Of a stretch of DNA of 64,000 nucleotides, positions 3,274 to 49,892 are shown in pieces. The DNA is from a bacterium (GTDB taxonomy: Bacteria; Chloroflexota; Dormibacteria; Aeolococcales; Bog-877). The stretch is from positions 8,907 through 72,906 of the forward strand of contig JAJYET010000004.1 in the NCBI GenBank assembly GCA_021785655.1, in the 5' to 3' direction. The notes under the pieces were generated by a model. It did not search any database. It was not told the DNA's origin and saw only the letters and a program-made list of their open reading frames with translations. The translations under genes and the position numbers were made by a program. The stretch's first letter is position 1. Every line of letters starts with the position of its first letter.

Positions 3274-3274
3274 G

Positions 3275-30291: not shown

Positions 30292-30368
30292 GGGCGCATA
30301 GCTCAGGTGGTTAGAGCGCTACCCTGACACGGTAGAGGCCCCAGGTTCGACTCCTGGTGCGCCCACCA
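30292..30368 (+). tRNA. tRNA-Val (anticodon GAC), CCA encoded; integration target
   Basis: GGGCGCATAGCTCAGGTGGTTAGAGCGCTACCCTGACACGGTAGAGGCCCCAGGTTCGACTCCTGGTGCGCCCACCA; anticodon loop CTGACAC. Confidence 0.9.
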
Positions 30369-30372
30369 GCCT
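30319..30372 (+). repeat. attL core (54 bp, 3' part of tRNA-Val)
   Basis: ctaccctgacacggtagaggccccaggttcgactcctggtgcgcccaccagcct identical to 49839..49892. Confidence 0.85.
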
Positions 30373-30408
30373 CCGCTTTTTCCGGGTTTCAAAAGGGATT
30401 TCGGGCCC

Positions 30409-30437
30409 TTGACAGAAAGTGCAGGGAGTGCTAATCT
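30409..30437 (+). promoter_or_regulatory. sigma70-like promoter upstream of integrase (TTGACA-17-TAATCT)
   Basis: TTGACA at 30409, 17-nt spacer, TAATCT at 30432. Confidence 0.4.
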
Positions 30438-30526
30438 GGCCCAAATATTGACATGGGTACCGCTCTGGAGCAGAGGCTTTGACTTGAAAGCGGCTGCAGG
30501 CAGAGCGGACCTTGAAGGAGCCTCCG

Positions 30527-31480
30527 ATGCCGACTCTCAAAGTGGTCGAGTCCCCGGCGCCCACCGCCGTCGAGCGCTGCGTCCAGGACTACCTGACCTC
30601 CTGCCGGGCCCGGGGCCTCGCCCCGGGGACCATCGTCCAGCTCACCTACTCGCTCCGGAGCGTCTTCCTGCCCTGGGCTGCCCAACAAGCGCTCACCGAG
30701 ATCGCCGACTTGACCCCGCGCATGCTGGAGCGGATGGCCGCCGATCTCCTGACCGCCGGGGGCAGGCGCGGACCGCTCGCTCGCCAGACCGTCCGCACCT
30801 ACCTGAGGGCCGTGAACCTCTGCCTCAAGTGGGCTAGGGCTGAGGGGGAACCCGTACCGGACCGGGCTGCCGCTCCACTCCCGAGGCTGCCCAAGACCCT
30901 CCCGCAGGTGCTGAGCCGGGAGCAGATCGCCGCCATCGAGTCTGCCTGCGCCACCGAACGCGACCGGTTGATCGTACGCCTCCTCGCCGACACCGGGATG
31001 CGGGTGGGAGAGCTCGCGGGCCTCCGCCTCGGAGACCTGCTGCAGCGCAGCCGCGGCTCCTTCCTGCGCCTGCGGGGCAAGGGGGACCGGGAGCGCCAGG
31101 TGCCAGTCATGCCCCACCTGGCCAACCGGATCCAGCGCTACGCCGCCCGGACCAGACCCGCCGATCCGGGGACCGATCGCCTCTTCGTCAGCCTCCGGCG
31201 CAGCCCCCGCACCGGGACCTACGAGCCGCTCACGACCTCCGGGATCCAGCAGATCATTCGCCATGCGGCCGGTCGGGCGGGGATCCCCCAGCGAGTCCAT
31301 CCGCATCTGTTCCGGCACTCTTTCGTGACCTGGGCGATCACGCGCGGAATGAACCCCATCCAGCTCGCCGAGATCGTCGGCCACTCGTCCACGGCAATGA
31401 TCCAGCAGGTCTACTCCCACCTCTCCCCCAGCGACGCCTATGAAGCCATGGCAGCGGCCCTCCTCGGGAAGGGGAGCTGA
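30527..31480 (+). CDS. int: tyrosine-type site-specific integrase
   Basis: R..HxxR..Y catalytic residues (HPHLFRHSFVTWA, ..VYSHL); GAAGGAG SD 6 nt upstream of ATG 30527; adjacent to tRNA-Val 3' end. Confidence 0.9.
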   Translation: MPTLKVVESPAPTAVERCVQDYLTSCRARGLAPGTIVQLTYSLRSVFLPWAAQQALTEIADLTPRMLERMAADLLTAGGRRGPLARQTVRTYLRAVNLCLKWARAEGEPVPDRAAAPLPRLPKTLPQVLSREQIAAIESACATERDRLIVRLLADTGMRVGELAGLRLGDLLQRSRGSFLRLRGKGDRERQVPVMPHLANRIQRYAARTRPADPGTDRLFVSLRRSPRTGTYEPLTTSGIQQIIRHAAGRAGIPQRVHPHLFRHSFVTWAITRGMNPIQLAEIVGHSSTAMIQQVYSHLSPSDAYEAMAAALLGKGS

Positions 31481-31594
31481 CGGCAGGGTGCTCTCCTGAC
31501 CCCCGGTCCGCCGTCCCGAGCGCCCCGGGACCGTCACCCTGCGTGGGAGCCACGGCAGGACGGGTCAAGGCACGCCGCATCCCGGTCGGATCCC

Positions 31595-31843
31595 TCAGCT
31601 CTTCGGGGCCGGTCGCCTCGGAGCATGGAAAGCTGGCAGGATCTCGTCCACACCGGAGACCGGGGGGGCCGCCGCGAGGGCGACCGCGATCTTCCGCAAC
31701 GTGTTGGGACTCACCGGCCGTCCAGCTGTCGCCGTGGTGACGGTGGCAGCACTGACACCAGCGGCCCGGGCAAGGTCCACATTGTTCCAACCTCTGCGGG
31801 CAATCTCAAACCTCAAGCGGTCGGCCGCCAGGATCACGCTCAC
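31595..31843 (-). CDS. XRE-family helix-turn-helix regulator (possible excision/immunity regulator)
   Basis: 82 aa; WNNVDLARAAGVSAATVTTATAGRPVSPNTLRKIA HTH; 4-nt overlap with upstream Rep-like ORF. Confidence 0.55.
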   Translation of the reverse strand: MSVILAADRLRFEIARRGWNNVDLARAAGVSAATVTTATAGRPVSPNTLRKIAVALAAAPPVSGVDEILPAFHAPRRPAPKS

Positions 31844-33065
31844 GGCCGGTCCAGCCCAGTGGGCTCGAACCCCGAGTTTCGAGGCTCAGTTCCTTTCCCG
31901 GCACTTCCCGTGTCGAGTAGACCCCGGCCAGCGGCCGTGGAGGCGGCCACCTCCATCCTCTGGCGGCCCTTGCGGTCGACGGTCTCGCTGAAGGTCGCAC
32001 CCCGCCGCTCCAGATAGTCGTAGACCCCGCGCACGGTGCGCCCCAGCGCGGCGCCGAGGCCGTGAGCGGCGCCCATCGCGGGCAGTCTGGAGACGCAGCC
32101 GACCAGCCCCCGGATGATCAGCAGCTCGTCCGTGGAGCGGACCAGGTCCCGCACCAGCGGAGACGCGGGCGAACCGATCTCCGCCTCCCGGATCACCTGC
32201 CACTCCCGGGCCCCCGGCCAGCGGGAACGGTGGGAGTCCGAGGTCGGAACCTCGAGCGAGACCCACTGGGTCGTGCAGCGCCACAGCTCCCGGCGCGCCT
32301 CCAGCGCCTCGGCCGGAGAGGAGTCTCCCAGTGACACCAGGGAGCGGCGGCGGAACTGGAACTCCACCCGCCAGACCGGCTGCTCCCGGTCCCAACCCTT
32401 CCAGATCGCCTTTGGCCACTCCCCTCCCCACCCCCTGAGCTCCAGGGTCTTGACGTAGCAGCGGGCCATCACGGCAACGCCACCGAAGACGAAGCCGCTC
32501 GGTCGGCGGCCCCGGAGATGGGCCCGTGCATAGATCGGCACCATGCAGGTGCGGCGGCGGACCGCGCGGCAGTGGAAGTGTCGAAGTCTTCGACAGCCGG
32601 AAACCAGCCCTGGGTGTCGCGGTACAGGTCCAGTCGCGAGATCCCGGGGAGAGGCTCATCTCGCATCACGTTTGCGGCCAGCCGCTCCGAGATTTCAGCC
32701 ACGGCGTCATCCACCCCCTGGGAGTGGAGGGAGGCGGAGTGGGTCTGGATGAAGACCGGCGGGAAGGGGGACGGCGCCCCGATCGCCACCTCCATGTTGG
32801 GAGAGCTGGCCCAGAACGGATAGCTCCGCCAGCCGTGGGGGTGCAGGGCTACCGAGAGGCACTGCTCGCCCCAGGGGACCACCTGGAACTCGTTGGTGCG
32901 CTGAGACTCCTCCTTGAGCGCCTCGAGGAAGACCAGCAGACCGTCCTGCAGCTCCCCACGGACGGAGCAGGGGAGCGTGTCCACCCCGGCGGCCGGAATC
33001 CTCAGGTCTGCCGCCACGATCGATCCGAGAGCCCGTCTGAGGTGGAGTGTGTATTTTCCCACCAC
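31840..33065 (-). pseudogene. replication initiator protein, RepSA-like (putative HUH/rolling-circle type), split across two frames
   Basis: N-terminal frame 32469..33065 (..LHPHGW..) and C-terminal frame 31840..32544 (..CYVKTLELRGWGGEW..WRVEFQF..YDYLERRG); frame change in overlap ~32470-32545. Confidence 0.4.
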
Positions 33066-34377
33066 TGTGTGACAGGCACTCGTGGTGGGAGAGGGCCTTG
33101 CCGCTCCACCTGGCGAGGGGCATCTGGTGGCTCCCCTCCAGGGAGCATTCCACCGCCTGGAACTCCTCCAGGGTCTCCTCCCGCCAGATGGCCCGCGGGG
33201 AATGGGGCGGGAGGAGAGCGGCCCTGTCGCTGTCCAGGCAGATGTGGCTGTTCACGGCGGCCCGGACCCGGAAGGCGACCGCGCCCTGGAGATGGGCCTT
33301 CAGCTGCCCCGGCATCGCCTCGGCATCCTGGCGCTGGGTGCAGCAGACGAGGTGGACCCCCACCGACCGCCCCAGCCTGGCGACCTCCCCGAGCCGCCCG
33401 CTGGCCGCCTGCTGGGCGGCGCGGTCGGCCCGGTCGTCGCCCAGGTCGAGACAGGTCAGCTCCGCCACCTCGTCCACCGCGACCGGCAGCCGGGGCCAGC
33501 TCGGCGGGGAAGCCGGTCTCTCCGAGGAAGCAGCCTCCCGCACCTCCCGGAGCCGCCGGTCCACCTCCTGCCGGACCCGCCCCAGAGTGTCGGCCGCCGC
33601 CAGGAGGCCGTCCGCCAGGGGGTAGATGGCGTGAGGTAGGCCCCTGAAAGGGGCGAGCTCCACCCCACCTTCGAGGTCGATGACGGCCACCTGGAGGTCC
33701 TCCGGTTCGTGCTCCCGGCAGAGGACGGTGAGCACCTGCCGTAGGAAGACAGGCTTGCCCCCTCCGGTCATCCCGCCCGCCAAGAGGTGGGGGCGGGCGT
33801 TCAGGTCCACCCAGAAGGATCCCCGGCGCCCTCTGCCGAGGCCGATGAGGAACCTCTCCGGCGGCCGGGGCGAGCTGTACATCTCCCGGTACGCGAGGTG
33901 GTACGGGATGCGGTGCCGCAGCACCTCGGTCACCAGGCCCCCGCGCTCCTCACACACCCGCAGCGAACACTCACTGCGGGCCTCCAGGGGCTCCTGCCGC
34001 TGCGGGACGTCCCACAGGGTGACCACGGGCGGCACCCGCCAACGCAGGGTCACGGTGCGCCGCTGCCACCTCGCGTTTGGCCGCGCTCCCGGCGCCACCA
34101 CCCGGCCCCTCCGGTCCACACCCACAACGCCGCACTCCACCATCGCCCGGCGCAGTCTGGCCGCCGGGGACCTGCCCCTCCCGTCGACCGTGAGAAGCGC
34201 TGCGGCCGAGGCCGCGATGAGGGTCCCGCACGATGAGGCACCTTCGCCCCAGTGCAGTTCGGATGCCGCGACCGGGTCGGCCACCAGTACCCAGTCGGCC
34301 GGCTGCCCGAGGAGCCACGTCCCGACGGCCCCGGGATCCGATAGGGCCCTGGGGTCGGCCAGGTACCTGCCGCCCAT
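32707..34377 (-). CDS. traB: FtsK/SpoIIIE-family DNA translocase TraB/TraSA-like; 3' end uncertain
   Basis: Walker A GMTGGGKPVF, Walker B-like VAVDEVAEL, ..HLVCCTQR; ATG 34377 overlaps stop of upstream small ORF (TGATG); recognisable domain ends near 33120, remainder low-complexity read-through. Confidence 0.65.
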   Translation of the reverse strand: MGGRYLADPRALSDPGAVGTWLLGQPADWVLVADPVAASELHWGEGASSCGTLIAASAAALLTVDGRGRSPAARLRRAMVECGVVGVDRRGRVVAPGARPNARWQRRTVTLRWRVPPVVTLWDVPQRQEPLEARSECSLRVCEERGGLVTEVLRHRIPYHLAYREMYSSPRPPERFLIGLGRGRRGSFWVDLNARPHLLAGGMTGGGKPVFLRQVLTVLCREHEPEDLQVAVIDLEGGVELAPFRGLPHAIYPLADGLLAAADTLGRVRQEVDRRLREVREAASSERPASPPSWPRLPVAVDEVAELTCLDLGDDRADRAAQQAASGRLGEVARLGRSVGVHLVCCTQRQDAEAMPGQLKAHLQGAVAFRVRAAVNSHICLDSDRAALLPPHSPRAIWREETLEEFQAVECSLEGSHQMPLARWSGKALSHHECLSHSGGKIHTPPQTGSRIDRGGRPEDSGRRGGHAPLLRPWGAAGRSAGLPRGAQGGVSAHQRVPGGPLGRAVPLGSPAPPRLAELSVLGQLSQHGGGDRGAVPLPAGLHPDPLRLPPLPGGG

Positions 34378-34622
34378 CAGAACGAGGAGGCCGCCGGGGC
34401 CGGATGTGAAGCACGCAGCGGCGGGCTCGGGCTCCCCTCCGCGATGAAGCCCGAGATCAGCCAGATGGCGAGGAGCAGCGCCAGCAGGACCCAGCAGCCG
34501 ATGCGTCCCCCCGGGGTACCCCGGAGGAGGGAGCGGAGGACCGCCAGCACGACCATGACGCTGAACAGGACGGCGGCCGCCACCACCACGAAGGTGAGGA
34601 TCGCCCCCAGGACGCCGGTCAC
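34377..34622 (-). CDS. small two-TM membrane protein (Spd-like spread protein candidate)
   Basis: 81 aa, two hydrophobic helices; translationally coupled between the SSB-like ORF and traB. Confidence 0.35.
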   Translation of the reverse strand: MTGVLGAILTFVVVAAAVLFSVMVVLAVLRSLLRGTPGGRIGCWVLLALLLAIWLISGFIAEGSPSPPLRASHPAPAASSF

Positions 34623-34985
34623 TTCCGGGCCCTTGCCTGGGTCTCAGTGGCACCCTCCTTCCGGAGAGGCGAGAGGTACGTGATGTGGTCCGCCACCACT
34701 ACCAGGCGAAGCTGGCCTCCCCCCTCCGTGCCTTCCGGGTTGTAGAAGATGCCGCGGAGCCGGCCGGTCACCGCGACCCTTGAGCCCTTGCCAATAAAGC
34801 GCACCCGGTTCCTCGCCTGGCCCCCCGGGCCTCGACCCGACCCAGTCCGGCTCCTGGGTGCGGTCCCGCCGACACACCGCGCAGAGGGCGCTCTCCTTCA
34901 CCTGCGGGTCCGGCTCCCCTGCCGTGAGGAACTCCTGGACCCGAACCTCAGAGGCGACCACCCCGATCAGCTCGACGTGGGTCAT
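34619..34985 (-). pseudogene. small SSB-like OB-fold protein split over two frames
   Basis: frame A MTHVELIGVVASEVRV..ALCAVCRR; frame B ..GSRVAVTGRLRGIFYNPEGTEGGGQLRLVVVADHITYL resembles SSB L45/beta strands; frame change ~34800. Confidence 0.35.
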
Positions 34986-35185
34986 CGCCCCACCTCCCGC
35001 TCCCCCACCTGCCGCTCTGGCCCTCCCAGCCCTCGGGCGGGCGTCCTCCCGGCATCACCGCCCACCAGGGCAGGTGGCACATCTCCTGGCCCCCGTTGTC
35101 TTCGTCCTCATGCTTATCGCCCCGAGGTCTCCGCAGGTCCTTTGACATCTCTCACCTTCTGTGCTGGCGGTGCTCCGGCCCGGGT

Positions 35186-35309: not shown

Positions 35310-36101
35310 TCAATACCCCTCTGGCACCCGGGGGAAGACCAGGGTGGTCATGTCGCCCGGAAGGTGGCTCTCGATCACCGCCACCACCTGCTCCTGTTCC
35401 CGCATCACCCGGTACAGCTGCAGCACCGGCACCCCGTCCGGTAGCGCCAGCAGCGCCTTCAGGTGGGAAGTCGGCATGGAGGCCTCTACCACGTCCTCCC
35501 CCTCCTCCCCTGGCAGCCCCCTGAACTTGAGCAGGTCCGGGAGCCAGAAGCCGGTCAGCTCCTCTTCCCGGATCCCCGCCTCCTCCTCCGCCACCGGGTG
35601 AAGCCACACCCGGGCCAGGATCGGGGCCCCGGTGACGTCGATCCCGGTACCCTCCTGGACCAGCACCACCGTGCCTGGAGCCACCTGGAGAAGCTCCCCC
35701 ACCCAAGGGGTGACCGGGATCCTCCGAGTGAGGTCCCCCAGCAGCCCCTGAATCTTGAAGGCGCGCCCGGTGGAGGGATCAGCTGCCGGCTCCTCAACCG
35801 GCCCGACCTGCGGCCGGGCGGTGCCCACCGCCCGGGCTTGCACCCTCTGGCGCTCAGCCTTGGGGTCGCGGACGAAGCTCCCGGAGCCGTGCTCGGACGC
35901 CACCCTCCCTTCCTGCTTCAGCACCCCCAACGCGCTGCGCACCGTGGAACGGGTCACGTGGTACCTCGCCATGAGCTTGCGCTCAGAGGGGAAGGCCACC
36001 CCCGGCGGCAGACGTCCCTCCTCGATCTCGAGCCGGAGGGCCGCCGCCAGCTGCTGGTACAGAGGATCAGAGCTGTCTCGGTCCAAGCAGTACGTCGCCA
36101 T
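35310..36101 (-). CDS. korSA: GntR-family (HutC/UTRA subfamily) transcriptional repressor, KorSA-like
   Basis: N-terminal wHTH (SERKLMARYHVTRSTVRSALGVLKQEGRV) and UTRA effector domain. Confidence 0.8.
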   Translation of the reverse strand: MATYCLDRDSSDPLYQQLAAALRLEIEEGRLPPGVAFPSERKLMARYHVTRSTVRSALGVLKQEGRVASEHGSGSFVRDPKAERQRVQARAVGTARPQVGPVEEPAADPSTGRAFKIQGLLGDLTRRIPVTPWVGELLQVAPGTVVLVQEGTGIDVTGAPILARVWLHPVAEEEAGIREEELTGFWLPDLLKFRGLPGEEGEDVVEASMPTSHLKALLALPDGVPVLQLYRVMREQEQVVAVIESHLPGDMTTLVFPRVPEGY

Positions 36102-36254: not shown

Positions 36255-37412
36255 CTAGTGGTCCGGCGGCCAAATAGGTGAAGCCCATAAGCTGGCAGTA
36301 TGAAGATGATGCCAGCGGCGGAACCTTTGCCGGTGACCAGGGAAGACCGGGCGGCGTTGGAGAGGCTCGCGAAGTCGACTTCGCGGAGTCACCGAGCGGT
36401 GCTGCAAGCGCGAGGACTGCTGTTGGCTAGCGAAGGGGTGGCCAACTACGAGATCGCTCGGCGCGTGGGCGTGTGCTCCAACACAGTCCGGAGTTGGCGG
36501 CGGAGCTTTCCACAACGGGGTGTGGCGGGGGTGGGAGTGATTCGCCCCGGTCGGGGCCGCAAGCCGTGGCTGCCCGAGGGGACGGTGGCGGAGGTGGTGC
36601 GATTGACGCAGCAAGAACTGCCGGCTGATGGCTCCACCCACTGGACCACTCGGAGCTTGGCCCGACGAGTGGGGATCGGCAAGGACAGTGTGGGGCAGAT
36701 CTGGAAGGACCACGACCTCAAGCCGTGGAAGGTGGAGACCTTCAAGATCTCCAATGATCCTGCCTTCGAAGAGAAGCTGGTGGACGTGGTGGGGCTGTAC
36801 CTGAACCCGCCCGAGCGCGCTGTGGTGTTCAGCGTCGACGAGAAGACCCAGTGCCAAGCCCTGGACCGGACCCAGCCAGGACTGCCCATGCGGCCGGGCC
36901 GAGCGGGAACCATGACCCACGACTACAAGCGCAACGGCACCACCGACCTGTATGCGGCCCTCAACATCGCCACCGGGCAAATGCTGACCGACTGTCGGGA
37001 TCGACACACCGCCAAGGACTTCGTGCGCTTCCTGCGGATCATTGACCGCAACGTGCCGGTCCAGTTGGACGTGCACCTGGTCTTGGACAACCTCTCCGCG
37101 CACAAAGCCCCCGAGGTGCAGGCCTGGTTGGCACATCCGCAGCGACGTCGCTTTCACCTCCACTTCACGCCGACCAGCTCCAGCTGGGTCAATCTGGTCG
37201 AGCGCTGGTTCAAAGAGCTGACCGACAAACGCCCGCGGCGCGGCACCTTCAGCAACGTGCCCGCCCTCATCGACGCCATCAAACTCTGGGTGTCCCACTG
37301 GAACGACAACCCCCAGCCTTTTGTATGGCACACACCCGCGGACGAGATCATCGCCAAGGTCCGCAGGGGCCGCGCTGCACTAGCCCAACTTAATTCACCG
37401 ACGGACCACTAG
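36255..37412 (+). mobile_element. IS630-family insertion sequence, copy 1
   Basis: imperfect terminal inverted repeats CTAGTGGTCCGGCGG.. / ..CCGACGGACCACTAG; TA target duplication; single transposase ORF filling element. Confidence 0.75.
36300..37412 (+). CDS. IS630-family DDE transposase
   Basis: 370 aa; N-terminal HTH, DDE core (..VFSVDEKTQCQALDR.., ..VHLVLDNLSAHK.., ..YSSWVNLVERWF). Confidence 0.85.
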   Translation: MKMMPAAEPLPVTREDRAALERLAKSTSRSHRAVLQARGLLLASEGVANYEIARRVGVCSNTVRSWRRSFPQRGVAGVGVIRPGRGRKPWLPEGTVAEVVRLTQQELPADGSTHWTTRSLARRVGIGKDSVGQIWKDHDLKPWKVETFKISNDPAFEEKLVDVVGLYLNPPERAVVFSVDEKTQCQALDRTQPGLPMRPGRAGTMTHDYKRNGTTDLYAALNIATGQMLTDCRDRHTAKDFVRFLRIIDRNVPVQLDVHLVLDNLSAHKAPEVQAWLAHPQRRRFHLHFTPTSSSWVNLVERWFKELTDKRPRRGTFSNVPALIDAIKLWVSHWNDNPQPFVWHTPADEIIAKVRRGRAALAQLNSPTDH

Positions 37413-41665: not shown

Positions 41666-42754
41666 CTAGTGTCCTGCTTCCGAAGTAGCTACGCAAGAGC
41701 GAGCGATGCTGGCGAGGATCTGGTCGGCGGTCTTGACCCAGGTGAAGGGCTTGGGGTGCTCGTTGTTGGCCTTGAGGTAGACGCGGATTGCGTCCTCCAG
41801 AGCGCGCACGCTCTGGTGTGAACCCCGTCGGACCTGGCGCTCCGTGAGCAGTCCGAACCAGCGCTCCACCTGGTTGATCCAGGACGAATAGGTCGGGGTG
41901 AAGTGCAGCTGAAACCGGGGATGGAGCAACAGCCAACGATGGACCGAACGAGTCTTGTGGGTGCCGTAGTTGTCGAGTACCAGATGAACGCCGAGGTCGG
42001 CGGGGACCTCGGCGTCGATGCGCTGCAGAAAGCTGAGGAACTCGGTACTGCGATGGCGCCGGTGAAGGTCGCCGATCACCCTGCCGGTGCCGATGTCCAG
42101 GGCGGCGAACAAGGTGGTGGTCCCGTGGCGGTGGTAGTCATGGGTCTGGCGCTCGGGGAGCCCGGGCCGCATGGGCAGCAGCGGCTGGGTACGGTCCAGC
42201 GCCTGAATCTGGCTCTTCTCGTCGACGCAGAGGACCAGCGCCGCCTCCGGGGGGTGCAGGTACAGGCCCACGATGTCCCGCACCTTCTCCACCAGCTGCG
42301 GATCGTTGGAGAGCTTGAAGCTCTCGCTGCGGTGCGGCTGCAGACCGAAGGCATGCCAGATGCGCAGCACGCTGGTGTCGCTCAGCCCACTGGCTTCGGC
42401 CATACTCCTGGTGGTCCAGTCGGTGGCGTTGGCCGGCTTGGTCTCCAGAGTTCGCACCACCACCTGCTCCACCTGCTCGTCGGTGATTCGCCGAGGGGCC
42501 CCACACCGGGGCTCGTCCAGAAGACCCGCCAGCCCCCGGCCGATGTACCGCTTTCGCCACTTCCCCACCGTGGCAGCGCTCACCCGCAGCTGGGCCGCCA
42601 CATCCCGGTTGCTGACCCCGTCGGCGCAGCGCAGTACGATGTCCGCCCGGCGCGCCAGCCCGTTTGAGGTGGTCCTGCGCCGCCGCCACCGCAGGAGATG
42701 CTCCCGGTCCTCCGGGCTGACCAGCAGGTCGGGTTTGGGACGGCCACGGAGCAT
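41666..42754 (-). CDS. IS630-family DDE transposase
   Basis: 362 aa; same architecture and conserved blocks as 36300..37412. Confidence 0.85.
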
Positions 42755-42826
42755 GATCTGGCCCTCATTGTGAGGCCTCCAACGACCGCTCCATTATAAC
42801 CAGTATCTTCAGAAGCAAGACGCTAG
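41666..42826 (-). mobile_element. IS630-family insertion sequence, copy 2 (diverged paralogue)
   Basis: terminal inverted repeats CTAGTGTCCTGCTTCCGAAGTAGCT / AGTATCTTCAGAAGCAAGACGCTAG. Confidence 0.75.
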
Positions 42827-43249: not shown

Positions 43250-43292
43250 TAAGACCAGTGTGGAAAGGCCGCGATGAAGGGGTAGGACTGGC

Positions 43293-43571
43293 GTGAAGCA
43301 GACTTCGCTTCATAACCGGGTCGCGGTTCTGCGCACCGAGCACGGACTGAGCCGGCACGAACTGGCCGAGGCGGTGGGCGTCAACTACCAGACCATCGGC
43401 TACATCGAACGTGGCGAATACAGCCCCAGCCTGGACCTGGCCTTCCGCCTGGCTGAGGTATTCGAACTCCCGATCGAAGCGATTTTCTCGCGGCGACCCA
43501 TGAGGCCGATGAGCCAGCAGCTCTTCGCCCCGGATCGGGCGCCGGCCGTGGGGCCTGGGACCGAGAGGTGA
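43293..43571 (+). CDS. XRE-family HTH transcriptional regulator (YozG-like)
   Basis: LRTEHGLSRHELAEAVGVNYQTIGYIERGEYSPSLDLAFRLAEVFELPIEAIF; stop overlaps GTG of next gene (GTGA). Confidence 0.7.
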   Translation: MKQTSLHNRVAVLRTEHGLSRHELAEAVGVNYQTIGYIERGEYSPSLDLAFRLAEVFELPIEAIFSRRPMRPMSQQLFAPDRAPAVGPGTER

Positions 43572-44638
43572 CCAGCACCACGACCCGTCTAACTCGCTAC
43601 CGCCGCCCCGACTTCCTGGTCGGAGCTGTGCTTGCCCTTTACGCCGTGATTATCGCGACCTTGACCTTCGCACTTCCGGGACGGTGGCAGGCGTACAAGG
43701 TCTACCTGGTCTTCGTCGCGGTGACCATTCTGGCGGTCAGGCTGGTCCCCGTCGAGCCAGGGTCCCTACTTCGGCGCCGGGTGGCGCGGCGGACTCTGGT
43801 CGGAGTTATCGTCGGAGTCTGTCTGCTGATGGTGGTCGTCGGAAGTGGCCTGGGCTACTACCTGTGGCTCGGGATCCTCTGCCTGGTTTTCTGCGACGTG
43901 CTGTTGGGGCGGGCCACCCAGCGGATTGCCACTGCCCCTGACGACCATGTCGATGAGTGGCAGGAGTCGCTGCGCAACCGGGCCCATCGCACTGCGTACT
44001 GGGTCATCGCGGCGTCCTTTGTGGTGTTGTTCTTCAGCACCTATGTGGCCACCGAGCAGACGAGGGCATGGCTGTTCCAGGGCCGTGGAGGAGGGCTTTG
44101 GATCGTCTCCGCTGAACTGCTCTTCTGCCTACCCGCCATGGTGATCGCCTGGGGCCAGTCGGACCCTGTCTCCGAGTTTCTATCCCCACCGCGGCACCTG
44201 GCGTGGCTGCGACGGGCGACCGTTGCGATGGTGAGCGCATCACTGCTGGCGCCGGTGCTGGCCAGTCTCGCACTGCCCGTACTGCCAATCACAACCCAGT
44301 CCTCCGTCCGGCCGAGCCAAGGCCGGTGTCTGAACTTCAGAGCGACGGAGACCGTCGGGATCCTAGTCGAGGCTCAGTTGCCTCTCGCGGCTCTGGCCTG
44401 TTGGAACGGGCGGCGCGCGGTCGAAATGTATGGGATGAACCGGAGTGACTGCGTGCAGGCCGACACCCAGCTAGCCACAACAGAGACCATCGCATGCCGG
44501 CGCATGGTCTCCACGACTGGGACGCTGCGCTTCGTCTACACCGCCAGAGTTGGCTCTCCGTTCTTGCCCTTCATGGCAAGGGTTGTGACCCTCCGAGTGA
44601 CGCTCACGCGTACCGGCAGGGTGCTGCAGTTCCCGTGA
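43568..44638 (+). CDS. polytopic membrane protein (7 predicted TM) with Cys-containing C-terminal domain, paralogue A
   Basis: 356 aa; cytoplasmic-loop motif DEWQESLRNRAHRTAYWVI; C-terminal ~110 aa with CWNGRRAV..C..C; GTG start overlapping XRE stop. Confidence 0.5.
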   Translation: MTSTTTRLTRYRRPDFLVGAVLALYAVIIATLTFALPGRWQAYKVYLVFVAVTILAVRLVPVEPGSLLRRRVARRTLVGVIVGVCLLMVVVGSGLGYYLWLGILCLVFCDVLLGRATQRIATAPDDHVDEWQESLRNRAHRTAYWVIAASFVVLFFSTYVATEQTRAWLFQGRGGGLWIVSAELLFCLPAMVIAWGQSDPVSEFLSPPRHLAWLRRATVAMVSASLLAPVLASLALPVLPITTQSSVRPSQGRCLNFRATETVGILVEAQLPLAALACWNGRRAVEMYGMNRSDCVQADTQLATTETIACRRMVSTTGTLRFVYTARVGSPFLPFMARVVTLRVTLTRTGRVLQFP

Positions 44639-45627
44639 ACGTTGTCAGACCGGTGAGGACCTGGAAAGGTCGCCGCCGAGGGCACCTTCGGAGAGCTTGC
44701 GTGGTCATAGCGGGGGCGCTGTGGCTCCTCCTAGCCTCTCCCGTACCGGAGTCATTGAGCGGGTGGGGGATAGCTGTGGTGCTCACGATTGTCGCCATCG
44801 TCCTGGCCCTGGGGGCTGGCACCGGATGGATTGCCTTCCAGCGAGCAGATCGAGTCGATGAGTTCAGTCGGGAGCTGCGAGATCGTGCCTACCGGCTCGC
44901 GTTCAGGTTCTTCGTGTTGGGAGTGCTCCTCCTGGCTCTTGCGTGGTTCGTGAGCCAAGTGCTCCATGGGCAGATCACTTGGGCGGTCCCCGACCCGGTA
45001 GGCGCCAGACGCATGGCGGCGCTACTGGTTCTGTTGGCCACGCTGCCGACTGCGATGACGGTCTGGATGGCTCCCGCTGCAGGGGATGACCCCCGGGCTG
45101 CGGGCTCGCCAGCGCGGGCCGGCCGACTCACTTGGCGTTGGCTGCCCTTGATTTCCGTCCCAGCGCTGTTCACGGTGTGGTTGTCCGGCGTGGCCCTCAT
45201 GCCGGTAAGTGGGGCGACCCTGGTCACCCTGCCAGATCCCGGGTTCGCTATGACAAATGGACATTGCGGTGCATTCGCGGCCACGCAGCAGGTGGCGCGC
45301 GGCTTTGGCCCGACAGTCCGACTCCTCGCCCAGGTGTGCTGGAATGGTCGGGAAGCGTGGGTGATCAACGACCCCGGAGCGCCGACACCTCGCTACTTCG
45401 GACCTTTGTCGTCAGGCGTGGAGCCGACCCTCTGTTCTCCCGCCAACGACGGTACCGACTTCGGAGTGGTCAGGCGAGTGGGCTGCCGAGTGTGGATCAA
45501 TGGGGCGGGAACTGTCCACGTGCGCCTTAGGGCCCAGGCGGGGTCTGGTCTGCTGAGCATCGGGCGGAAATGGATCCAGATCACCTTGGTGGTGACCAGG
45601 AGCGGTCGAGTTCTGATATTTACGTGA
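44635..45627 (+). CDS. polytopic membrane protein, paralogue B
   Basis: shares DEFSRELRDRAYRLAF loop motif, CWNGREAW and terminal ..TRSGRVLIFT with paralogue A; probable GTG start 44635 overlapping stop of paralogue A (GTGA). Confidence 0.5.
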   Translation: MNVVRPVRTWKGRRRGHLRRACVVIAGALWLLLASPVPESLSGWGIAVVLTIVAIVLALGAGTGWIAFQRADRVDEFSRELRDRAYRLAFRFFVLGVLLLALAWFVSQVLHGQITWAVPDPVGARRMAALLVLLATLPTAMTVWMAPAAGDDPRAAGSPARAGRLTWRWLPLISVPALFTVWLSGVALMPVSGATLVTLPDPGFAMTNGHCGAFAATQQVARGFGPTVRLLAQVCWNGREAWVINDPGAPTPRYFGPLSSGVEPTLCSPANDGTDFGVVRRVGCRVWINGAGTVHVRLRAQAGSGLLSIGRKWIQITLVVTRSGRVLIFT

Positions 45628-45829
45628 GAGGACGGCCTGGGCACTGAAGCCCGGAAGTCGATGTCCCCCAACGTGGCTTGGTGCCGCAGCTTGGCCGCCT
45701 TGAGCCGGGTCGCCAGCCGCCGGCTCTCCCCCCAGCTCATCTCCCGGTCCTCAGGCAGCCCGATGCAGTCCTCGAAGGGCAGCTCCAGGCCCTGGGTCTG
45801 CTCCAGCTGCTCCCGCAGCGCCGGAACGG

Positions 45830-46100
45830 CTGCTGTTGGCGAATCGAGCTCGCGCGCCGTGCCTGGGGCCAGGCCGAGCTATCGCGTGCTGCTCGTCTCC
45901 GAGCCCCGGCTGTGCGAGTCGGCTCTCTCGGGCGGGCCGATCGCTCCCAGGACGCTCCGGAAGATAGCCATGGCGCTGGCGACGGCTCCAACGCTGGCCG
46001 CTCTCGATTCGATCCTTCCGCCAGTGCGTGGAGTGGCGAAGGACCGCGACGGCGCCAGGCCGGAGGTTCGTCCCACTTTGATTCCGTACCGGCGTCCAGC
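45830..46100 (+). pseudogene. frameshifted remnant of an XRE-like regulator gene (paralogue of 31595..31843)
   Basis: ..WRIELARRAWGQAELSRAARL.. in one frame and ..TLRKIAMALATAPTLAALDSILPP.. in another; compare LRFEIARRGWNNVDLARAAG / TLRKIAVALAAAPPVSGVDEILPA. Confidence 0.35.
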
Positions 46101-46344
46101 GCTCTCAGTCGCCGATACTCGAAGCTGCCCGCAGAACTGACGCTCGCTCCTGATCGTGTACAGCGTCATCAAGGCATAGCTCTCCAGCAACGGCTTCGGG
46201 GGGCGGGGGGCGCCCAACTGCGCCTACAGTTCTTGAAGGGACAGTTCCAGTTGCCAAGGTGCCGCCTCTGCCAGCGGCTTCATTCTGCGGATCGGGTAGT
46301 TCGCCGGAATCACCGCAGTCGGGCGTTCAAGCGGGTAGCGCTAT

Positions 46345-46356
46345 CCCCCCCCCCCC
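46345..46356 (+). repeat. homopolymeric C12 tract abutting transposon inverted repeat
   Basis: cccccccccccc directly followed by tggag and the left IR. Confidence 0.8.
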
Positions 46357-46409
46357 CTGGAGTCAAACTTGGGTAATAATAGACTTGACGCACGCCGGAT
46401 AGGGGTGCC

Positions 46410-47375
46410 ATGATCTCCACGGCATGGGAAGTTGGCGGCGTGATGGGACGGCTGAGCCGGGTGGTACACCCGTGGTCGAGCCGTGAGCGACTGTTCGCCA
46501 TGCTTGAACTGACCGCCTTTTCGGACGAGAGCTACACGGAGCACGAGGTTTATTGCGTCGCGGGCTACTGGGCAAGCGCGCGTGCATGGTCCCACTTTGA
46601 TGACCAGTGGAAACAAGAACTAGCGCGTTGCGGCCTCTCGGAGTTCCACGCGGAAGACTGTGAGCAAGGCCATGGAGAATATGCCAATAGGAAGGACCGC
46701 GCGAAGCTACGCGCAAGATTCACCAAGATTGTGAACGCCAATATGCTTCACGGGGTTTTCGCTTGCATTGACCTTCGTGGCTGGGACGACATTGCCGACG
46801 AAGTTGCCTACCTGCGTCCCGACGCGAGAGATCCGTTCTACATCCCCTTCCAGATGTTCCTGGAAGGCGCTACTAAAGAGGTTGACTGCTTTGCCCCCAA
46901 CGAACGCCTCGCGGTAGTCTTCGACGACCGCGAGGGTGCTGGCAAAGTGGTTGAGCTTTACAACTCGCTTAGGCGCGATGCGGACCCGGCCTTCAAAGTT
47001 TTGAACGCTCGTCTCGGGAGTGCGGTGTCTGGGGCGTCTAGTGAATATGCCGGTCTCCAGGCCGCCGATCTCCTGGCGTATGAGGCGCGACTCTATGTAA
47101 GCGGTCCAATCTGGGGAGTGCGCGGGTCCGAGCGGCGCCCAGCGTGGGAGCCGTTGTCTTCTAAGCTTCGCCACGGCAGCGTGATTACTCGCGAGCAGAT
47201 GCCGGCCCTAGCCCGGCAAATGCGCGTGAAGGGCGGCGAGGGTGCTATGCGTCGGGCGGCTGTTCTGGCGGCTCGGAAGGCCGACCGCGATGCCCATGGG
47301 GCCGTCTATCGCGCTCGTACTTCTCCCGCTGCTCCGCAATCTCCTGAGCCGGGACGGCCAGAAGAGACCGCATAA
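46410..47375 (+). CDS. DUF3800-family protein (cargo gene; C-terminal tail possibly read-through)
   Basis: FSDESYTEH (DES motif) and EYAGLQAADLLAYE (QxxD motif); low-GC codon usage (ttt, aaa, gaa). Confidence 0.55.
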   Translation: MISTAWEVGGVMGRLSRVVHPWSSRERLFAMLELTAFSDESYTEHEVYCVAGYWASARAWSHFDDQWKQELARCGLSEFHAEDCEQGHGEYANRKDRAKLRARFTKIVNANMLHGVFACIDLRGWDDIADEVAYLRPDARDPFYIPFQMFLEGATKEVDCFAPNERLAVVFDDREGAGKVVELYNSLRRDADPAFKVLNARLGSAVSGASSEYAGLQAADLLAYEARLYVSGPIWGVRGSERRPAWEPLSSKLRHGSVITREQMPALARQMRVKGGEGAMRRAAVLAARKADRDAHGAVYRARTSPAAPQSPEPGRPEETA

Positions 47376-47422
47376 AACGGTCGAGGGGTGTCTGCGCCCG
47401 CTTGCTCTCATCGGTCATTGCC

Positions 47423-47528
47423 AGCACCTACGATAGCGGGTCCATCCAAACGGTGACATCAGGAAGGGGATTGCCAGCACCTACGATAGCGGGTCCATCC
47501 AAACGGTGACATCAGGAAGGGGATTGCC
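47423..47528 (+). repeat. perfect tandem duplication, 2 x 53 bp
   Basis: agcacctacgatagcgggtccatccaaacggtgacatcaggaaggggattgcc twice; ends 3 nt before ATG 47532. Confidence 0.9.
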
Positions 47529-47771
47529 TAAATGCATTCGAACGAATCGGCAGGACTTGCACACGGCCATAGCGATCGACATGTCAGCGCGGACGGCATT
47601 CCCCTCCGCCCCCCGCTCAGCACGGACGAAGACCGGCTCGAGGACAAAGTGCCAATCGTCGACCCCGCATATCGGGCACTCTTGTCGTCCGAGGCGTTTG
47701 TCAAGGCCGTCGAAGAAATCTGCGACCGTCGGTGGTTCCGCCGGGGCCCCCTCGTCCCGTTCTGATGTCAT
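47481..47771 (-). CDS. hypothetical zinc-ribbon protein downstream of IS1595 transposase (alternative: plus-strand ORF 47532..47765)
   Basis: 96 aa; CPICG ... CKSC; 33-nt gap after transposase stop, same strand; C-terminal codons lie in the tandem repeat. Confidence 0.3.
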   Translation of the reverse strand: MTSERDEGAPAEPPTVADFFDGLDKRLGRQECPICGVDDWHFVLEPVFVRAERGAEGNAVRADMSIAMAVCKSCRFVRMHLGNPLPDVTVWMDPLS

Positions 47772-47804
47772 GCCTAAGCCCTCCTGCCGCGCCCCTGCCG
47801 CTTC

Positions 47805-48758
47805 TTAGCAGGGGATGACTGTTTGGCCGGTCAGGTCACGATAGGTCAGCCGCCTACCCGAGACCTGACCGAGCACCTTCTCGAACCGCTCGCCGTCGCC
47901 TTCCTCGCGGGTGTTGAACCGTAGCGCCTGCTCATCGAGGTACCGGAACAGGTGAAAGGGCTCCACGCTGACGTAGGTACCGCGAAGCGACCGCTTCAAC
48001 AGGCTCCAGAAGTTCTCGATCCCGTTGGTGTGAACATTCCCCTCGACGTAGGTCACCGCATGGTTGATGACTTGGTGAACATAGTCGGAGTCAAGATCGG
48101 CGTATGAGGCAAGTGCATCGGTGAACACCTGAACCCCCGCCGATACGTTAGCCCGGACCTCGGGGGCCAAGGTCTTCCGGCGAACGTTCTCAACCACCTT
48201 GGCGCGGACTACACTGTGACGTTCGGGGCTGGTGCGCTCCAGCAGGCCCATCACGGCGGCCTTGCCGACACTACCCCGCCCCAGGTGCTTGCGCTTCGCC
48301 TCGTGCTGGAACCTGGCCTTGCCTCCGATGAAAGTCTCGTCAACCTCAACCTGGCCGCTCATCTTCTCGAAACTGTTGGTCCTCATGGCCAGCCGAATCC
48401 GGTGGAGCATGAACCAAGCGGACTTCTGGGAGACGCCGAGCGAGCGGTGGAGTTCGTAGGAGCTGATCCCGTTCCTGGCGCTAGTGATTAGCCAGATGGC
48501 GGGGAGCCACTTGTCGAACCCAAGTGGCGAGTCCTCAAAGATGGTCCCAATCTTGATCGAGAACTGCTGCCGGGGGTGCTTGGCCTTGCAACGCCAGACG
48601 CGGCGGGTAGCGATGAAGTGAACCTCGTGGCTCCCGCAAGTCGGGCAGGTGACCTTGCCATCCGGCCACCGCTGCGCGATGAGGTACTCAAGGCAGCGAT
48701 CCGGGTCAGAGAAGTAGCGGACCGCCTCGAGCAGGGTCTTGATTTCGGGCTTTGCCAT
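47805..48758 (-). CDS. IS1595-family transposase (zinc-ribbon + DDE_Tnp_IS1595)
   Basis: N-terminal CPTCGS..WRCKAK zinc ribbon; DDE core; 317 aa. Confidence 0.85.
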   Translation of the reverse strand: MAKPEIKTLLEAVRYFSDPDRCLEYLIAQRWPDGKVTCPTCGSHEVHFIATRRVWRCKAKHPRQQFSIKIGTIFEDSPLGFDKWLPAIWLITSARNGISSYELHRSLGVSQKSAWFMLHRIRLAMRTNSFEKMSGQVEVDETFIGGKARFQHEAKRKHLGRGSVGKAAVMGLLERTSPERHSVVRAKVVENVRRKTLAPEVRANVSAGVQVFTDALASYADLDSDYVHQVINHAVTYVEGNVHTNGIENFWSLLKRSLRGTYVSVEPFHLFRYLDEQALRFNTREEGDGERFEKVLGQVSGRRLTYRDLTGQTVIPC

Positions 48759-48901
48759 GCCTCAGAGTATAGCACATCTTGTGAGTGAAGTCTATTATTG
48801 CCCAAACTTGGGCTGGGCGGGCCCAAAGTAATCGGAGGGTATTGCCTTGGCGGCAGGTTTCGACCTCCACCAACCGGGACTGTGAGGTTATCGCCCGACA
48901 A

Positions 48902-49099
48902 TCACTCCCACTGCATGGAGTCGGCCGCTGGCCTATGCCTACCGCTTCTAGTCGTGAGCGTGCGCCCCAGCCACGGGGGCCCGAAGCGCAAGTGCCCCAG
49001 GCTGTCGATCTTCATAACGAAATCCGTCTGGCCCTCGGTCACAGCCCGCTGCAGCCTATCGTAGAACTCCAGTTTGAACTCATCGATGACTTCAGCCAC
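48902..49099 (-). CDS. N-terminal gene fragment (MAEVIDEFKLEFYDRLQRAVTEGQTDFV..), possibly disrupted by the transposon
   Basis: 65-aa ORF with lower GC immediately outside right IR. Confidence 0.2.
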   Translation of the reverse strand: MAEVIDEFKLEFYDRLQRAVTEGQTDFVMKIDSLGHLRFGPPWLGRTLTTRSGRHRPAADSMQWE

Positions 49100-49838
49100 G
49101 CCCTATCCTCCAGCGGAACCCGCAGTCATGGACCAGCTTGGAGTCTATGCGGTCTGCCCGGTCCACCTACCTTCCGGCCTTCTTCGCCGCGGCTCGGCTA
49201 CCATGACACGGAGCCGCCCCGCCACTCGCCTCTCTCGATTCGACGCTTCCGACGGCTCGTAACCAACGACCGGCACGGCACCAGTCCGGAGGTTCGTCCG
49301 GATTTCACCGCGCATCTGCGTCCAGGGTCCTCAGCCGCGACTGATCCATCGGCTCCCGGGGCTCTTCCCGAACGGCAGGCGTCCGACCCCTGGGAGCCTG
49401 GCGGCAACGGGAACCCTCCGTAGCCTCTGGCTCGGCAACCGAGTGGCAACTCCGAAGGCCAAGTACCTTCCGCATTCCCTGCGAGCGGCGCCCGGGCGCC
49501 ACCGGTAGGTTCGCTCCCAAGATTGCGCCCGGGCGACGGCAGCGCATCCCTGACCGGGTCACACCCTCTTTACTTTGGGTCCTTTGCCCTGGCGAAAGTA
49601 ACCCGGGTCCGATCCGCGACCTCCACCCTTGCCCGCAAGCCAACGTCGACGAATACTCTCCGGGGCCAGCCCCCCCGGCGCCGCGGGGGTCATGGCTGGA
49701 GGTAGCCGCACTCGTGGCTAACGCCCTGTCAGGCGCGCCTAGCCCCCGCATGGGTAGCGCTCTTTAGAAGCGCATCTGTGGAATACTCCTTTGCACTTAC
49801 AGTCAGAACGCACACTTGTGCGACGTCTCGGTAGAGGC

Positions 49839-49892
49839 CTACCCTGACACGGTAGAGGCCCCAGGTTCGACTCCTGGTGCGCCCACCAGCCT
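49839..49892 (+). repeat. attR core (54 bp copy of tRNA-Val 3' part)
   Basis: identical to 30319..30372. Confidence 0.85.

Follow-up and report, generated by a model that had tools for sequence, protein, structure and literature searches.

A decaying tRNA-Val island of Candidatus Dormibacterota and the tRNA-integrating element family to which it belongs

This paper deals with a genomic island in a 64,000-nt stretch of DNA from contig JAJYET010000004.1 (GenBank assembly GCA_021785655.1), hereafter called the window. The island occupies positions 30292 to 49892, starts at a tRNA-Val gene, and represents a resident member, now decaying, of a tRNA-integrating family of Candidatus Dormibacterota that had not been described before. 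An earlier note, made from the sequence without database searches, had described it as a pSAM2-type actinomycete integrative and conjugative element (AICE). Contigs and loci used for comparison are designated by L numbers and proteins by P numbers.

The island and its core genes

The anatomy given here is based on GC-frame plots, Pfam and NCBIfam searches, and comparison with relatives. Only about 6 kb of the island is core, and about two thirds of it (approximately 13.6 kb of 19.5 kb) consists of cargo and insertion sequences (ISs). The ends and the core comprise the following features, in which HTH stands for helix-turn-helix and SSB for single-stranded DNA-binding protein.

30292-30368, plus strand: tRNA-Val(GAC), the integration target, intact at attL (ARAGORN; Rfam tRNA, 70.8 bits)
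30319-30372, plus strand: attL core, 54-nt exact repeat running from the tRNA anticodon stem through CCA plus GCCT (repeat search; junction defined by the empty site in L012 and L007)
30409-30437, plus strand: promoter-like TTGACA (30409-30414), 17 nt, TAATCT (30432-30437), upstream of int (sequence)
30527-31480, plus strand: tyrosine integrase, XerC/D-like, 317 aa, intact, in an open reading frame (ORF) from 30512 (Pfam Phage_integrase, 1.9e-31; PHROG integrase, 1e-49)
31595-31843, minus strand: XRE-type HTH protein, 82 aa (Pfam HTH_26, 1.1e-5)
31840-33017, minus strand: rep pseudogene, frame-split, for a predicted Rep_trans-fold rolling-circle initiator/nickase (intact 392-aa orthologue in L001; fold search; motifs)
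33051-33090, minus strand: conserved stem-loop (TCCCACCAC / loop GAGTGCCTGTCACACA / GTGGTGGGA) plus AAAATAC, candidate nick site, i.e., double-strand origin (dso) or origin of transfer (oriT) (family comparison; covariation)
33002-34377, minus strand: tra pseudogene, FtsK/SpoIIIE/TcpA-like ATPase (Pfam FtsK_SpoIIIE, 6.8e-19)
34377-34622, minus strand: 81-aa protein with two hydrophobic helices, its stop overlapping the tra start (TGATG; position conserved in sister elements)
34619-34985, minus strand: ssb pseudogene, frame-split (tblastn to the intact 123-aa SSB of sister elements)
35310-36101, minus strand: GntR/HutC-type regulator, GntR plus UTRA (Pfam, 1.4e-17 and 4.3e-8)
49839-49892, plus strand: attR core, 54-nt exact repeat (repeat search)

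The module set that the earlier note had listed, namely a minus-strand operon of SSB-like, small membrane, FtsK-like, Rep, and XRE proteins, is present in full, including the 4-nt (GTGA) and TGATG overlaps between its genes, and the integrase is indeed intact. What the note had missed are the cargo, the three IS insertions, and the frameshift in tra. The promoter that it assigned to the integrase can be read in the sequence with the 17-nt spacing, but its -10 hexamer matches TATAAT at only three of six positions, which is weak, and a consensus promoter scan left the motif unflagged.

The GntR repressor of the note was likewise recovered, with both the GntR and the UTRA domain, and AICEs, too, carry a repressor of the GntR family. 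By analogy, it may correspond to KorSA. Its best plasmid matches are from actinomycete plasmids, at approximately 30% identity, and it shares about 32% with the GntR protein of an actinomycete Tra/RepSA plasmid. The 82-aa XRE protein always accompanies the XerC/D-like type of integrase (L016, L018, L024, L028, and L036) and fills the slot that Xis has in sister elements.

Integration into tRNA-Val

The exact 54-bp copy of the tRNA-Val 3' end some 19.5 kb downstream, which the earlier note had pointed out, was confirmed by ARAGORN, Rfam, and a repeat search. The two copies are spaced 19,520 bp apart, giving an element of about 19.5 kb, and the repeat search also returned a longer repeat of 61 nt with two mismatches (30312-30372 vs 49832-49892).

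An exact-sequence look-up of the neighboring ribosomal protein L20 yielded 18 contigs that could be compared at this locus. The tRNA-Val site is empty in L012, L007, and L009, whose flanks are 97-99% identical to those of the window and in which window position 30374/30376 is fused straight to 49832 onward. In L012, the tRNA runs directly into the DNA right of attR, with ...CACCAGCCT joined to GCCGCGCCGGTCC... at the junction. Because the empty-site strains join both flanks precisely, the element is exactly the DNA between the two repeats. The empty attB that the note had suggested looking for therefore exists, and the site-specific integrative element that it had placed between attL and attR stands. 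The tyrosine integrase put the element into the 3' end of tRNA-Val, thereby duplicating 54 nt.

Occupied sites were found as well. Contig L005 (GCA_027402005.1, 234 kb) is 99.98-100% identical to the window and carries the island, three further samples (L098-L100) have the same occupied structure, and altogether the occupied site was independently assembled in at least seven other contigs or samples. The presence of the island is thus polymorphic among near-identical strains.

At 14004-14088 of L001, a relative with an intact element, the attL copy of tRNA-Val has no encoded CCA (GCGCCCAGCACC vs GCGCCCACCAGCC).

The host lineage

The L20 protein encoded in the flank shares its complete sequence with a protein named Candidatus Dormibacteraeota bacterium, and the flanking threonyl-tRNA synthetase (ThrRS) clusters with Dormibacteria proteins. 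Homologues of Tra come almost all from metagenome-assembled genomes (MAGs) of Candidatus Dormibacteraeota/Dormibacteria, the best being 91% identical. When the GTDB species representatives were scanned with the Tra alignment, relatives of at least 40% identity were almost only Dormibacterota MAGs, apart from a single Chloroflexia MAG and a few differently labeled bins; the other matches are remote (25-35% identity). All close homologues of Tra and Rep are of the Dormibacterota lineage. Judged by these sequences, the host is an uncultured soil bacterium of Candidatus Dormibacterota and no actinomycete. It lies outside the Actinomycetales to which AICE hosts belong, and the label 'actinomycete' of the earlier note fails.

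A family of sister elements

Mapping fetched loci with tblastn showed that approximately 30 sister loci in Dormibacterota MAGs share the core. Its order is gntR-(orf59)-ssb-TM81-tra-rep, then one of two recombination modules and the tRNA. The first type of module combines xis (HTH_17) with a SAM3-type integrase, and the second combines the 82-aa XRE gene with an opposite-strand XerC/D-like integrase. Nine different tRNA genes are found beside the core:

Val-GAC, Arg-ACG, Arg-CCT, Pro-CGG, Phe-GAA, Ser-TGA, Gln-TTG, Glu-CTC, Tyr-GTA

One MAG holds at least five copies of the element. The five members with both ends in the fetched DNA measure 10.6-17.2 kb and are bounded by tRNA-derived repeats of 28-60 nt. 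The SSB of the sisters is intact (123 aa; Pfam SSB, 41 bits). In some members, gntR is replaced by HD, Nudix, and DUF5919 genes, which recall the mdp-nud-xre cluster and the Nudix protein Pif of AICEs (PMC3218068, PMC2440964). The cargo regions vary among members, and none of the roughly 30 sisters contains Pnkp/Hen1, the RNA repair cargo of the window copy. IMG/VR holds no close relative of the family.

An unannotated Rep with a predicted Rep_trans fold

Neither the Rep fragments of the window nor their intact orthologue match any Pfam, NCBIfam, or PHROG family, and PF02486 (Rep_trans/MOBT) gave no match at E<=1 to four family members or to a Bacillus homologue. The homologues (n = 86), which are from Dormibacteria and Ktedonobacteraceae, are all unannotated and without a Pfam domain.

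The AlphaFold (AF2) model of Rep (pLDDT 84, pTM 0.80) has as its top Foldseek matches 4CIJ (E 1.8e-11, probability 1.0) and RepDE 4CWC (E 1.5e-7); the next ones, TATA-binding proteins, are far weaker. 4CIJ is also the sole sequence-profile match in the PDB. In an alignment of 31 Reps, four residues (D13, D134, Y188, and E219) never vary and two more (K190 and E193) hardly do; they sit in the motifs GVDTL, VSRVDLxAD, RIYDKTxE, and VWRVEFQFRR. Rep_trans initiators and MOBT relaxases are defined by a metal-ligand triad (motifs N', I, and IV) and a Tyr-x-Lys-x-x-Glu signature (motif III) (PMC6499999), and the residues of Rep fit both the three acidic ligands and the tyrosine signature. On the strength of the model and these motifs, we assign the Rep_trans fold and its catalytic residues to this unannotated family, and the Rep-like initiator of the earlier note is borne out, as one of the rolling-circle type, at the level of predicted structure.

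Compared with the plasmid initiators 4CIJ (G. stearothermophilus Rep) and 4CWC (S. aureus RepDE), the fold (TM-score 0.58, normalized to the target) and the catalytic motifs are shared at only 13-18% identity. The Dormibacterota Rep has an extra C-terminal helical domain (approximately residues 260-363) and, unlike these two, is encoded in an integrative element beside an FtsK-like ATPase.

Rep is unlike the RepSA of pSAM2. It has no match to the RepSA family PF20199 at E<=1, to which a true RepSA from an actinomycete plasmid, our positive control, matches at 2.6e-153, and hhalign gives a probability of 0.2% between the Rep family and that RepSA. Rep is thus not of the RepSA, RepAM (DUF3631), or Prim-Pol type known from AICEs, and the label 'pSAM2-type' had to be dropped.

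More distant relatives occur elsewhere. By tblastn, Rep aligns at 29% identity (E 1e-21) with genes of Bacillus whose PGAP product name is 'replication initiation factor' and which lie in a Rep-HTH-integrase module. One such locus (L136; Bacillus cereus plasmid NZ_CP085507.1, 292495-311382) has a reverse-transcriptase gene, a Nudix-type hydrolase, and a Lamassu system as neighbors and no FtsK-like gene, from which it follows that the Rep-Xis-Int module circulates more widely. In a Ktedonobacteraceae MAG (GCA_051004815.1, locus L134), the distant homologue P0166 (28% identical to the query Rep) follows an AEP-type primase gene and precedes xis-int, an arrangement that recalls the Prim-Pol plus Rep pairs of SLP1-type AICEs. 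P0166 also has weak similarity to ORFs on cryptic plasmids of 1.7-3.4 kb.

A covarying hairpin between tra and rep

About 20 loci of the family share a stem of 9-10 bp that falls within the 3' end of tra, 60-95 nt ahead of the rep start. Its loop has the sequence gCCCTGTAACA or agtGCCTGTcACAc, with CCTGTAACA conserved, and the stem is followed by AAAATAC. The stems vary among elements yet stay complementary, with 96.4% of cells paired and eight of ten pairs changed on both sides; the covariation score is 0.705 vs 0.166 for shuffles (reached by 0 of 500), and slid controls pair at 33-47%.

In plasmids of the pT181/pC221 family, to which we take the 4CIJ and 4CWC Reps to belong, the nick site lies in a hairpin loop beside rep. 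By analogy with Rep_trans origins and with the oriT of ICESt3, which is located between the coupling-protein and relaxase genes (PMC6499999), the hairpin is probably the nick site. A terminator was rejected because AAAATAC, and no T-run, stands behind the stem. A 12-bp palindrome within tra (33174-33217) was also considered as a cis site and discarded, since, unlike the hairpin upstream of rep, it is not conserved in the family.

Tra, an FtsK-like ATPase

Tra matches Pfam FtsK_SpoIIIE (PF01580) with a score of 68.6 bits, above the cutoff of 24. As in AICEs, a transfer protein with this domain is present, and no family of type IV secretion systems (T4SSs) appears among the Pfam matches of any ORF tested, which covered the window ORFs and the elements with gene tables. 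The relatives of Tra have two clear N-terminal transmembrane (TM) helices that are eroded in the window clade, and the model predicts N-terminal helices, a beta-rich domain, and a RecA-like motor.

Fold and profile comparison did not discriminate between a TraB-type and a TcpA-type ATPase, and places Tra equally near the FtsK motor, pCW3 TcpA, and EccC: the profile E-values are 8e-41 for TcpA, 1e-41 for EccC, and 4e-36 for FtsK, and the fold E-values are 6e-17 (TcpA) and 6e-19. Against NCBIfam plasmid_TraB (NF041214), it reaches 16.3 bits where the cutoff is 800. The 'FtsK-like TraB' of the earlier note therefore holds as an FtsK/SpoIIIE-type translocase but not as a member of the Streptomyces TraB family. 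Over 200 residues, the Tra encoded by an actinomycete RepSA plasmid resembles it at 33% identity; among plasmid matches, FtsK-domain proteins of Firmicutes (E 1e-16 to 2e-19) outscore those of Streptomyces.

A PHROG FtsK-like family matches at 4e-46, and the nearest Tra relatives in IMG/VR do not exceed 36% identity. No Rep homologue was found beside the remote FtsK-like matches in Neisseriaceae, Oligoflexia, and IMG/VR loci.

Decay of the mobility genes

The same element occupies the same site in contig k141_113231 (loci L001 and L094), which served as the IS-free reference, and in MAG GCA_028068535.1. It is 95-98% identical there, measures about 15.65 kb, and contains none of the three IS insertions. 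The k141_113231 relative encodes an intact 458-aa Tra (P0001), to which the window Tra is 91% identical, and an intact 392-aa Rep.

Over 13.3 kb, the window differs from L001 by only four indels, each a 1-bp deletion in the window and each in the ssb-tra-rep block:

35263
34820, in ssb
33090, in tra, at residue ~428 of 458
32579, in rep

The deletion in tra replaces the last 30 aa, with reading continuing to 32707, and the one in rep parts motif I from the motif with the catalytic tyrosine. No indel occurs in 7.4 kb of housekeeping flank, and there are no gaps in the 4.3-kb Pnkp/Hen1 alignment. In the relatives L001 and L004, ssb is already frame-split, and in L004 tra was independently broken into parts of 302 and 155 aa.

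The ratios of nonsynonymous to synonymous substitution rates (dN/dS), again for the window vs L001, follow the same division:

Mobility genes: tra 1.14, rep 2.3, 81-aa gene 0.96
Retained genes: int 0.23, xre 0.39, gntR 0.20, Pnkp 0.32, Hen1 0.18
Housekeeping: ThrRS 0.06

The contrast in substitutions between mobility and retained genes is significant (Fisher p = 9e-8). Because the indels are confined to one module and dN/dS is raised in that same module, the frameshifts represent real decay and no sequencing error. On this comparison, ssb, tra, and rep of the window evolve neutrally, while int, gntR, xre, and Pnkp/Hen1 are intact and, by their ratios, under purifying selection; transfer and replication are not maintained by selection. 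The note had suspected a partly decayed element with split rep and ssb, which the intact relative and the ratios confirm, and tra is frameshifted too. The window copy is at most capable of excision and is effectively a domesticated, IS-ridden genomic island that keeps an RNA repair operon.

Cargo and insertion sequences

Between gntR and attR lie the following features.

36258-37409, plus strand: IS630-family insertion 1, with TA target duplication, on the Pnkp stop codon (Pfam DDE_3; terminal inverted repeats; empty site in L001)
37409-39937, minus strand: Pnkp, kinase-phosphatase-ligase RNA repair enzyme, 842 aa, intact (Pfam PNKP_ligase, 1.3e-169; AAA_33; Metallophos)
39934-41340, minus strand: Hen1, RNA 2'-O-methyltransferase partner of Pnkp, 468 aa, intact (Pfam Hen1_L, 9.5e-106, plus methyltransferase domains)
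41669-42823, minus strand: IS630-family insertion 2, TA-flanked, replacing 890 bp present in relatives (comparison with relatives)
43293-45627, plus strand: XRE regulator (92 aa) and two paralogous multi-TM proteins (356 aa and ~308 aa) (dN/dS 0-0.25)
46374-48800, no strand assigned: IS1595-family transposon with passengers, namely DUF3800 (46410-47375), a 96-aa ORF, and the transposase (47805-48758) (Pfam; terminal inverted repeats)

The bacterial Pnkp/Hen1 system has been characterized in Clostridium thermocellum and Anabaena variabilis. As in those systems, the window Pnkp unites kinase, phosphoesterase, and ligase and stands beside Hen1, which has the Pnkp-binding and methyltransferase domains; the two genes overlap and form one operon. 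In contrast to them, the operon is cargo of a tRNA-integrating element and is kept while the mobility genes decay. Pnkp stays intact despite the IS630 copy on its stop codon because the TA target duplication rebuilds TAG at 37409-37411.

IS630 insertion 1 is absent from relatives, and so is the IS1595-type transposon, whose target duplication is CAAACTTGGG and whose empty site is seen in L094. The IS630 and IS1595 insertions thus show the DDE transposases, inverted repeats, target duplications, and empty sites expected of ISs. A composite IS630 transposon around Pnkp/Hen1 was considered and rejected, since the two transposases are only 46% identical at the amino acid level and relatives keep Pnkp/Hen1 with neither IS. 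A near (megablast) search of the PLSDB plasmids matched IS630 copies only, so a near-identical plasmid-borne element in PLSDB was also discarded. Running PADLOC on the cargo proteins returned generic HTH and methyltransferase matches only.

The module of XRE and multi-TM genes recurs as an accessory and adjoins gntR in sister element L042. The stretch 43568-45627 had been examined as a frame-split Rep, which was rejected: it encodes the two paralogous multi-TM proteins behind the XRE gene and has no Rep motifs.

Some observations stand apart from these genes. Inside the IS1595-type transposon lies a perfect 53-nt tandem duplication (47417-47522). Aligned with the window, the 99.7%-identical L098 shows exactly 53 gap columns, as expected if it has one copy fewer, in which case the duplication would be very recent or an assembly variant. 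A degenerate pseudogene resembling the 82-aa XRE gene lies at 45840-46020 (plus strand), and the adjacent stretch 45985-46112 has a 74%-similar copy at 49216-49338; these remnants look like debris of older related elements.

Just right of attR, a 626-bp segment (50072-50697) is missing from the IS-free relative L094 and from the empty-site contig L007, and its ORFs have no Pfam match. L094 (16097-16275) and L007 (2869-3047) have an insert of about 0.9 kb right of the island with a fragment 70-71% identical to rep (window 32784-32963), which suggests repeated visits of the element family to the same locus. A PhdYeFM antitoxin/PIN toxin pair at approximately 50977-52000, directly right of attR, is chromosomal, since the empty-site strain L007 carries it too; a functional tie to the nearby RNA repair cargo would be speculation. 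Finally, genes for tRNA-Thr(GGT) and tRNA-Tyr(GTA) lie side by side at 3201-3356 on the minus strand, with no island noted beside them.

Comparison with known elements and proposed mechanism

The family resembles AICEs in many respects: a tyrosine integrase inserts it into the 3' end of a tRNA gene with att duplication, a single protein with an FtsK/SpoIIIE domain serves as the transfer protein in an element that has no T4SS genes, the Rep is of the rolling-circle type, and sister elements have the order rep-xis-int. The GntR repressor, the Nudix/HD variants of some sisters, and the several copies per genome fit as well, and an element-encoded SSB is also known from AICE pMEA100. AICEs measure about 9-24 kb, a range into which the family (10.6-17 kb) falls. 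Module set, which the earlier note had recognized as AICE-like, and order resemble those of AICEs, and the gene order matches that of plasmid pNL15-2K-Cir, a genuine actinomycete element (GntR, small ORF-FtsK-small ORF-RepSA ... recombinase). In contrast to AICEs, the host is Candidatus Dormibacterota, Rep has a predicted Rep_trans fold and is not RepSA, RepAM, or Prim-Pol, Tra stands outside the Streptomyces TraB family and has no C-terminal winged helix, Spd genes are absent, and the window copy uses a XerC/D-like integrase with XRE instead of Xis-Int. According to Ghinet et al., AICEs are confined to Actinomycetales, and none has a Rep_trans-type initiator.

A second set of likenesses leads to the MobT/TcpA modules of Firmicutes, i.e., Tn916 orf21-orf20, ICESt3 orfK-orfJ, and IME_SsuBM407_tRNAleu (PMC6499999, PMC5704250). 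In both, the gene for an FtsK-like ATPase, which has two N-terminal TM helices, precedes that for a Rep_trans-fold nickase, a cis hairpin lies between these genes, and the Asp/Asp/Glu plus Tyr-x-Lys-x-x-Glu set is the same, and some of these integrative and mobilizable elements (IMEs) also integrate into tRNA genes. Our family differs in that its Rep has neither a PF02486 match nor an N-terminal HTH, in its GntR/SSB/Nudix periphery, and in belonging to a different phylum with no known helper T4SS.

In intact family members, we propose that GntR would repress the operon. On induction, Int, together with Xis or the XRE protein, would excise the element as a circle; Rep would nick the hairpin loop and drive rolling-circle replication, the SSB would coat the displaced strand, and the membrane-anchored FtsK-like ATPase would export the DNA to a neighboring cell. 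Integration, polymorphism, family core, Rep fold and residues, hairpin, and decay together form a part of this account in which we have high confidence. For the whole statement, including the mechanism, which we consider the best explanation, our rough probability is 0.55. Export without a T4SS, i.e., AICE-like autonomy, we judge at slightly short of even odds; we lean toward it because no element encodes a T4SS and because the periphery (GntR, Nudix/HD, and the order rep-xis-int) is AICE-like.

Alternative explanations

Several points weigh against such autonomous transfer. Streptomyces TraB reads its clt site through a C-terminal winged-helix domain, and the C-terminus of the Tra model is disordered, with no such domain predicted. 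The nearest characterized relatives of Rep and Tra are found in T4SS-dependent Firmicute systems, not in AICEs; Rep_trans-fold proteins act as MOBT relaxases, and the layout tra-hairpin-rep equals orfK-oriT-orfJ of ICESt3 (PMC6499999). TraB-type transfer has been described as limited to mycelial actinobacteria (PMC5704250). For want of a Pfam or NCBIfam match, Rep was assigned from its predicted fold, its motifs, and a single PGAP product name. Lastly, the excised circle, with an attP junction of the form ...GTGCGACGTCTCGG + core + CCGCTTTTTCCGGG..., found no match in JGI metagenome contigs, a result that carries no information because the population derives from ENA samples. Alternatively, the elements may be IMEs of the MobT plus TcpA type, in which Rep would be a relaxase nicking a hairpin oriT and the FtsK-like protein a coupling protein, with single-stranded DNA leaving through the T4SS of a co-resident conjugative element. 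The predicted Rep_trans/MOBT fold with its catalytic motifs, an ATPase as similar to pCW3 TcpA as to FtsK with Firmicute plasmid matches outscoring Streptomyces, and the order coupling protein-oriT-relaxase as in ICESt3 and Tn916 (PMC6499999) speak for this, as does the integration of streptococcal MobT plus TcpA IMEs into tRNA genes (PMC5704250); an element-encoded SSB would suit single-strand transfer. However, no helper T4SS is reported for Dormibacterota in the literature searched and none occurs at the loci examined, the Rep model has no N-terminal HTH like that of RelSt3-type relaxases (although NicK lacks it too), and the periphery is typical of AICEs. Moreover, the weak Rep homologues on cryptic plasmids of 1.7-3.4 kb, which have little room beyond a replicase, suit a replicative role. 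We regard the IME explanation as serious yet doubtful.

The remaining explanations fare worse. An integrated rolling-circle plasmid or a phage-like (e.g., inovirus-like) element, with the ATPase serving partition or packaging, is improbable. Filamentous phages also carry Rep_trans initiators, SSBs, small membrane proteins, and a membrane ATPase, Rep-Xis-Int occurs with no FtsK-like gene in Bacillus and at another Chloroflexota-type locus, and a PHROG family matches the ATPase; but that ATPase is of the FtsK/TcpA and not the Zot type and has no close relative in IMG/VR, Pfam and PHROG searches of the element proteins matched no capsid, coat, or adsorption genes, and the cargo regions differ among family members. 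For a genuine pSAM2-type AICE, one could cite the module set and order, the actinomycete plasmid matches of GntR, and one member of the integrase cluster that is labeled Actinobacteria. Host and Rep refute it, with housekeeping flanks and close homologues from Candidatus Dormibacterota, no RepSA match, a plasmid_TraB score far below its cutoff, and PLSDB megablast matches to IS630 copies only, so we give it hardly any weight. That repeat and frameshifts are assembly or sequencing artefacts, the former of which the earlier note had named as the finding that would overturn it, could be argued from the source being a MAG and from one frameshift adjoining a G run. The same structure was, however, assembled in at least four independent samples (L005 and L098-L100), empty sites were found, the indels all fall within one 2.7-kb module, and dN/dS is independently raised in the same genes, which effectively refutes this explanation and reduces its probability to next to nothing.

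Significance

What is new here is an AICE-like or IME-like integrative family in a new phylum, with a new clade of Rep. The locus gives access to a family of some 30 elements or more, which are arranged like AICEs, encode Reps of an unannotated family, and have a covarying hairpin as their probable origin. Conjugation by a single FtsK-type protein is regarded as a specialty of mycelial actinomycetes, and a literature search returned no paper tying Dormibacterota, Chloroflexi, or Ktedonobacteria to conjugative elements, AICEs, or TraB. The family may possibly represent the first T4SS-independent (AICE-style) conjugative elements with an FtsK pump outside Actinomycetota, native to Dormibacterota/Chloroflexota and combining a TcpA/FtsK-like pump with a Rep_trans initiator at a hairpin, a claim that we make tentatively and below even odds. 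If true, the family could link the double-stranded DNA transfer system of actinomycetes with the MobT/TcpA module of Firmicutes in evolutionary terms.

Dormibacterota are a widespread, uncultured phylum of soil and permafrost. The Rep and hairpin parts bear on gene movement in this phylum and on a shared origin of the MobT/TcpA and actinomycete Tra/Rep modules. The window copy itself is a natural example of island domestication, in which mobility genes decay neutrally while an RNA repair operon, a repressor, and an integrase are kept.

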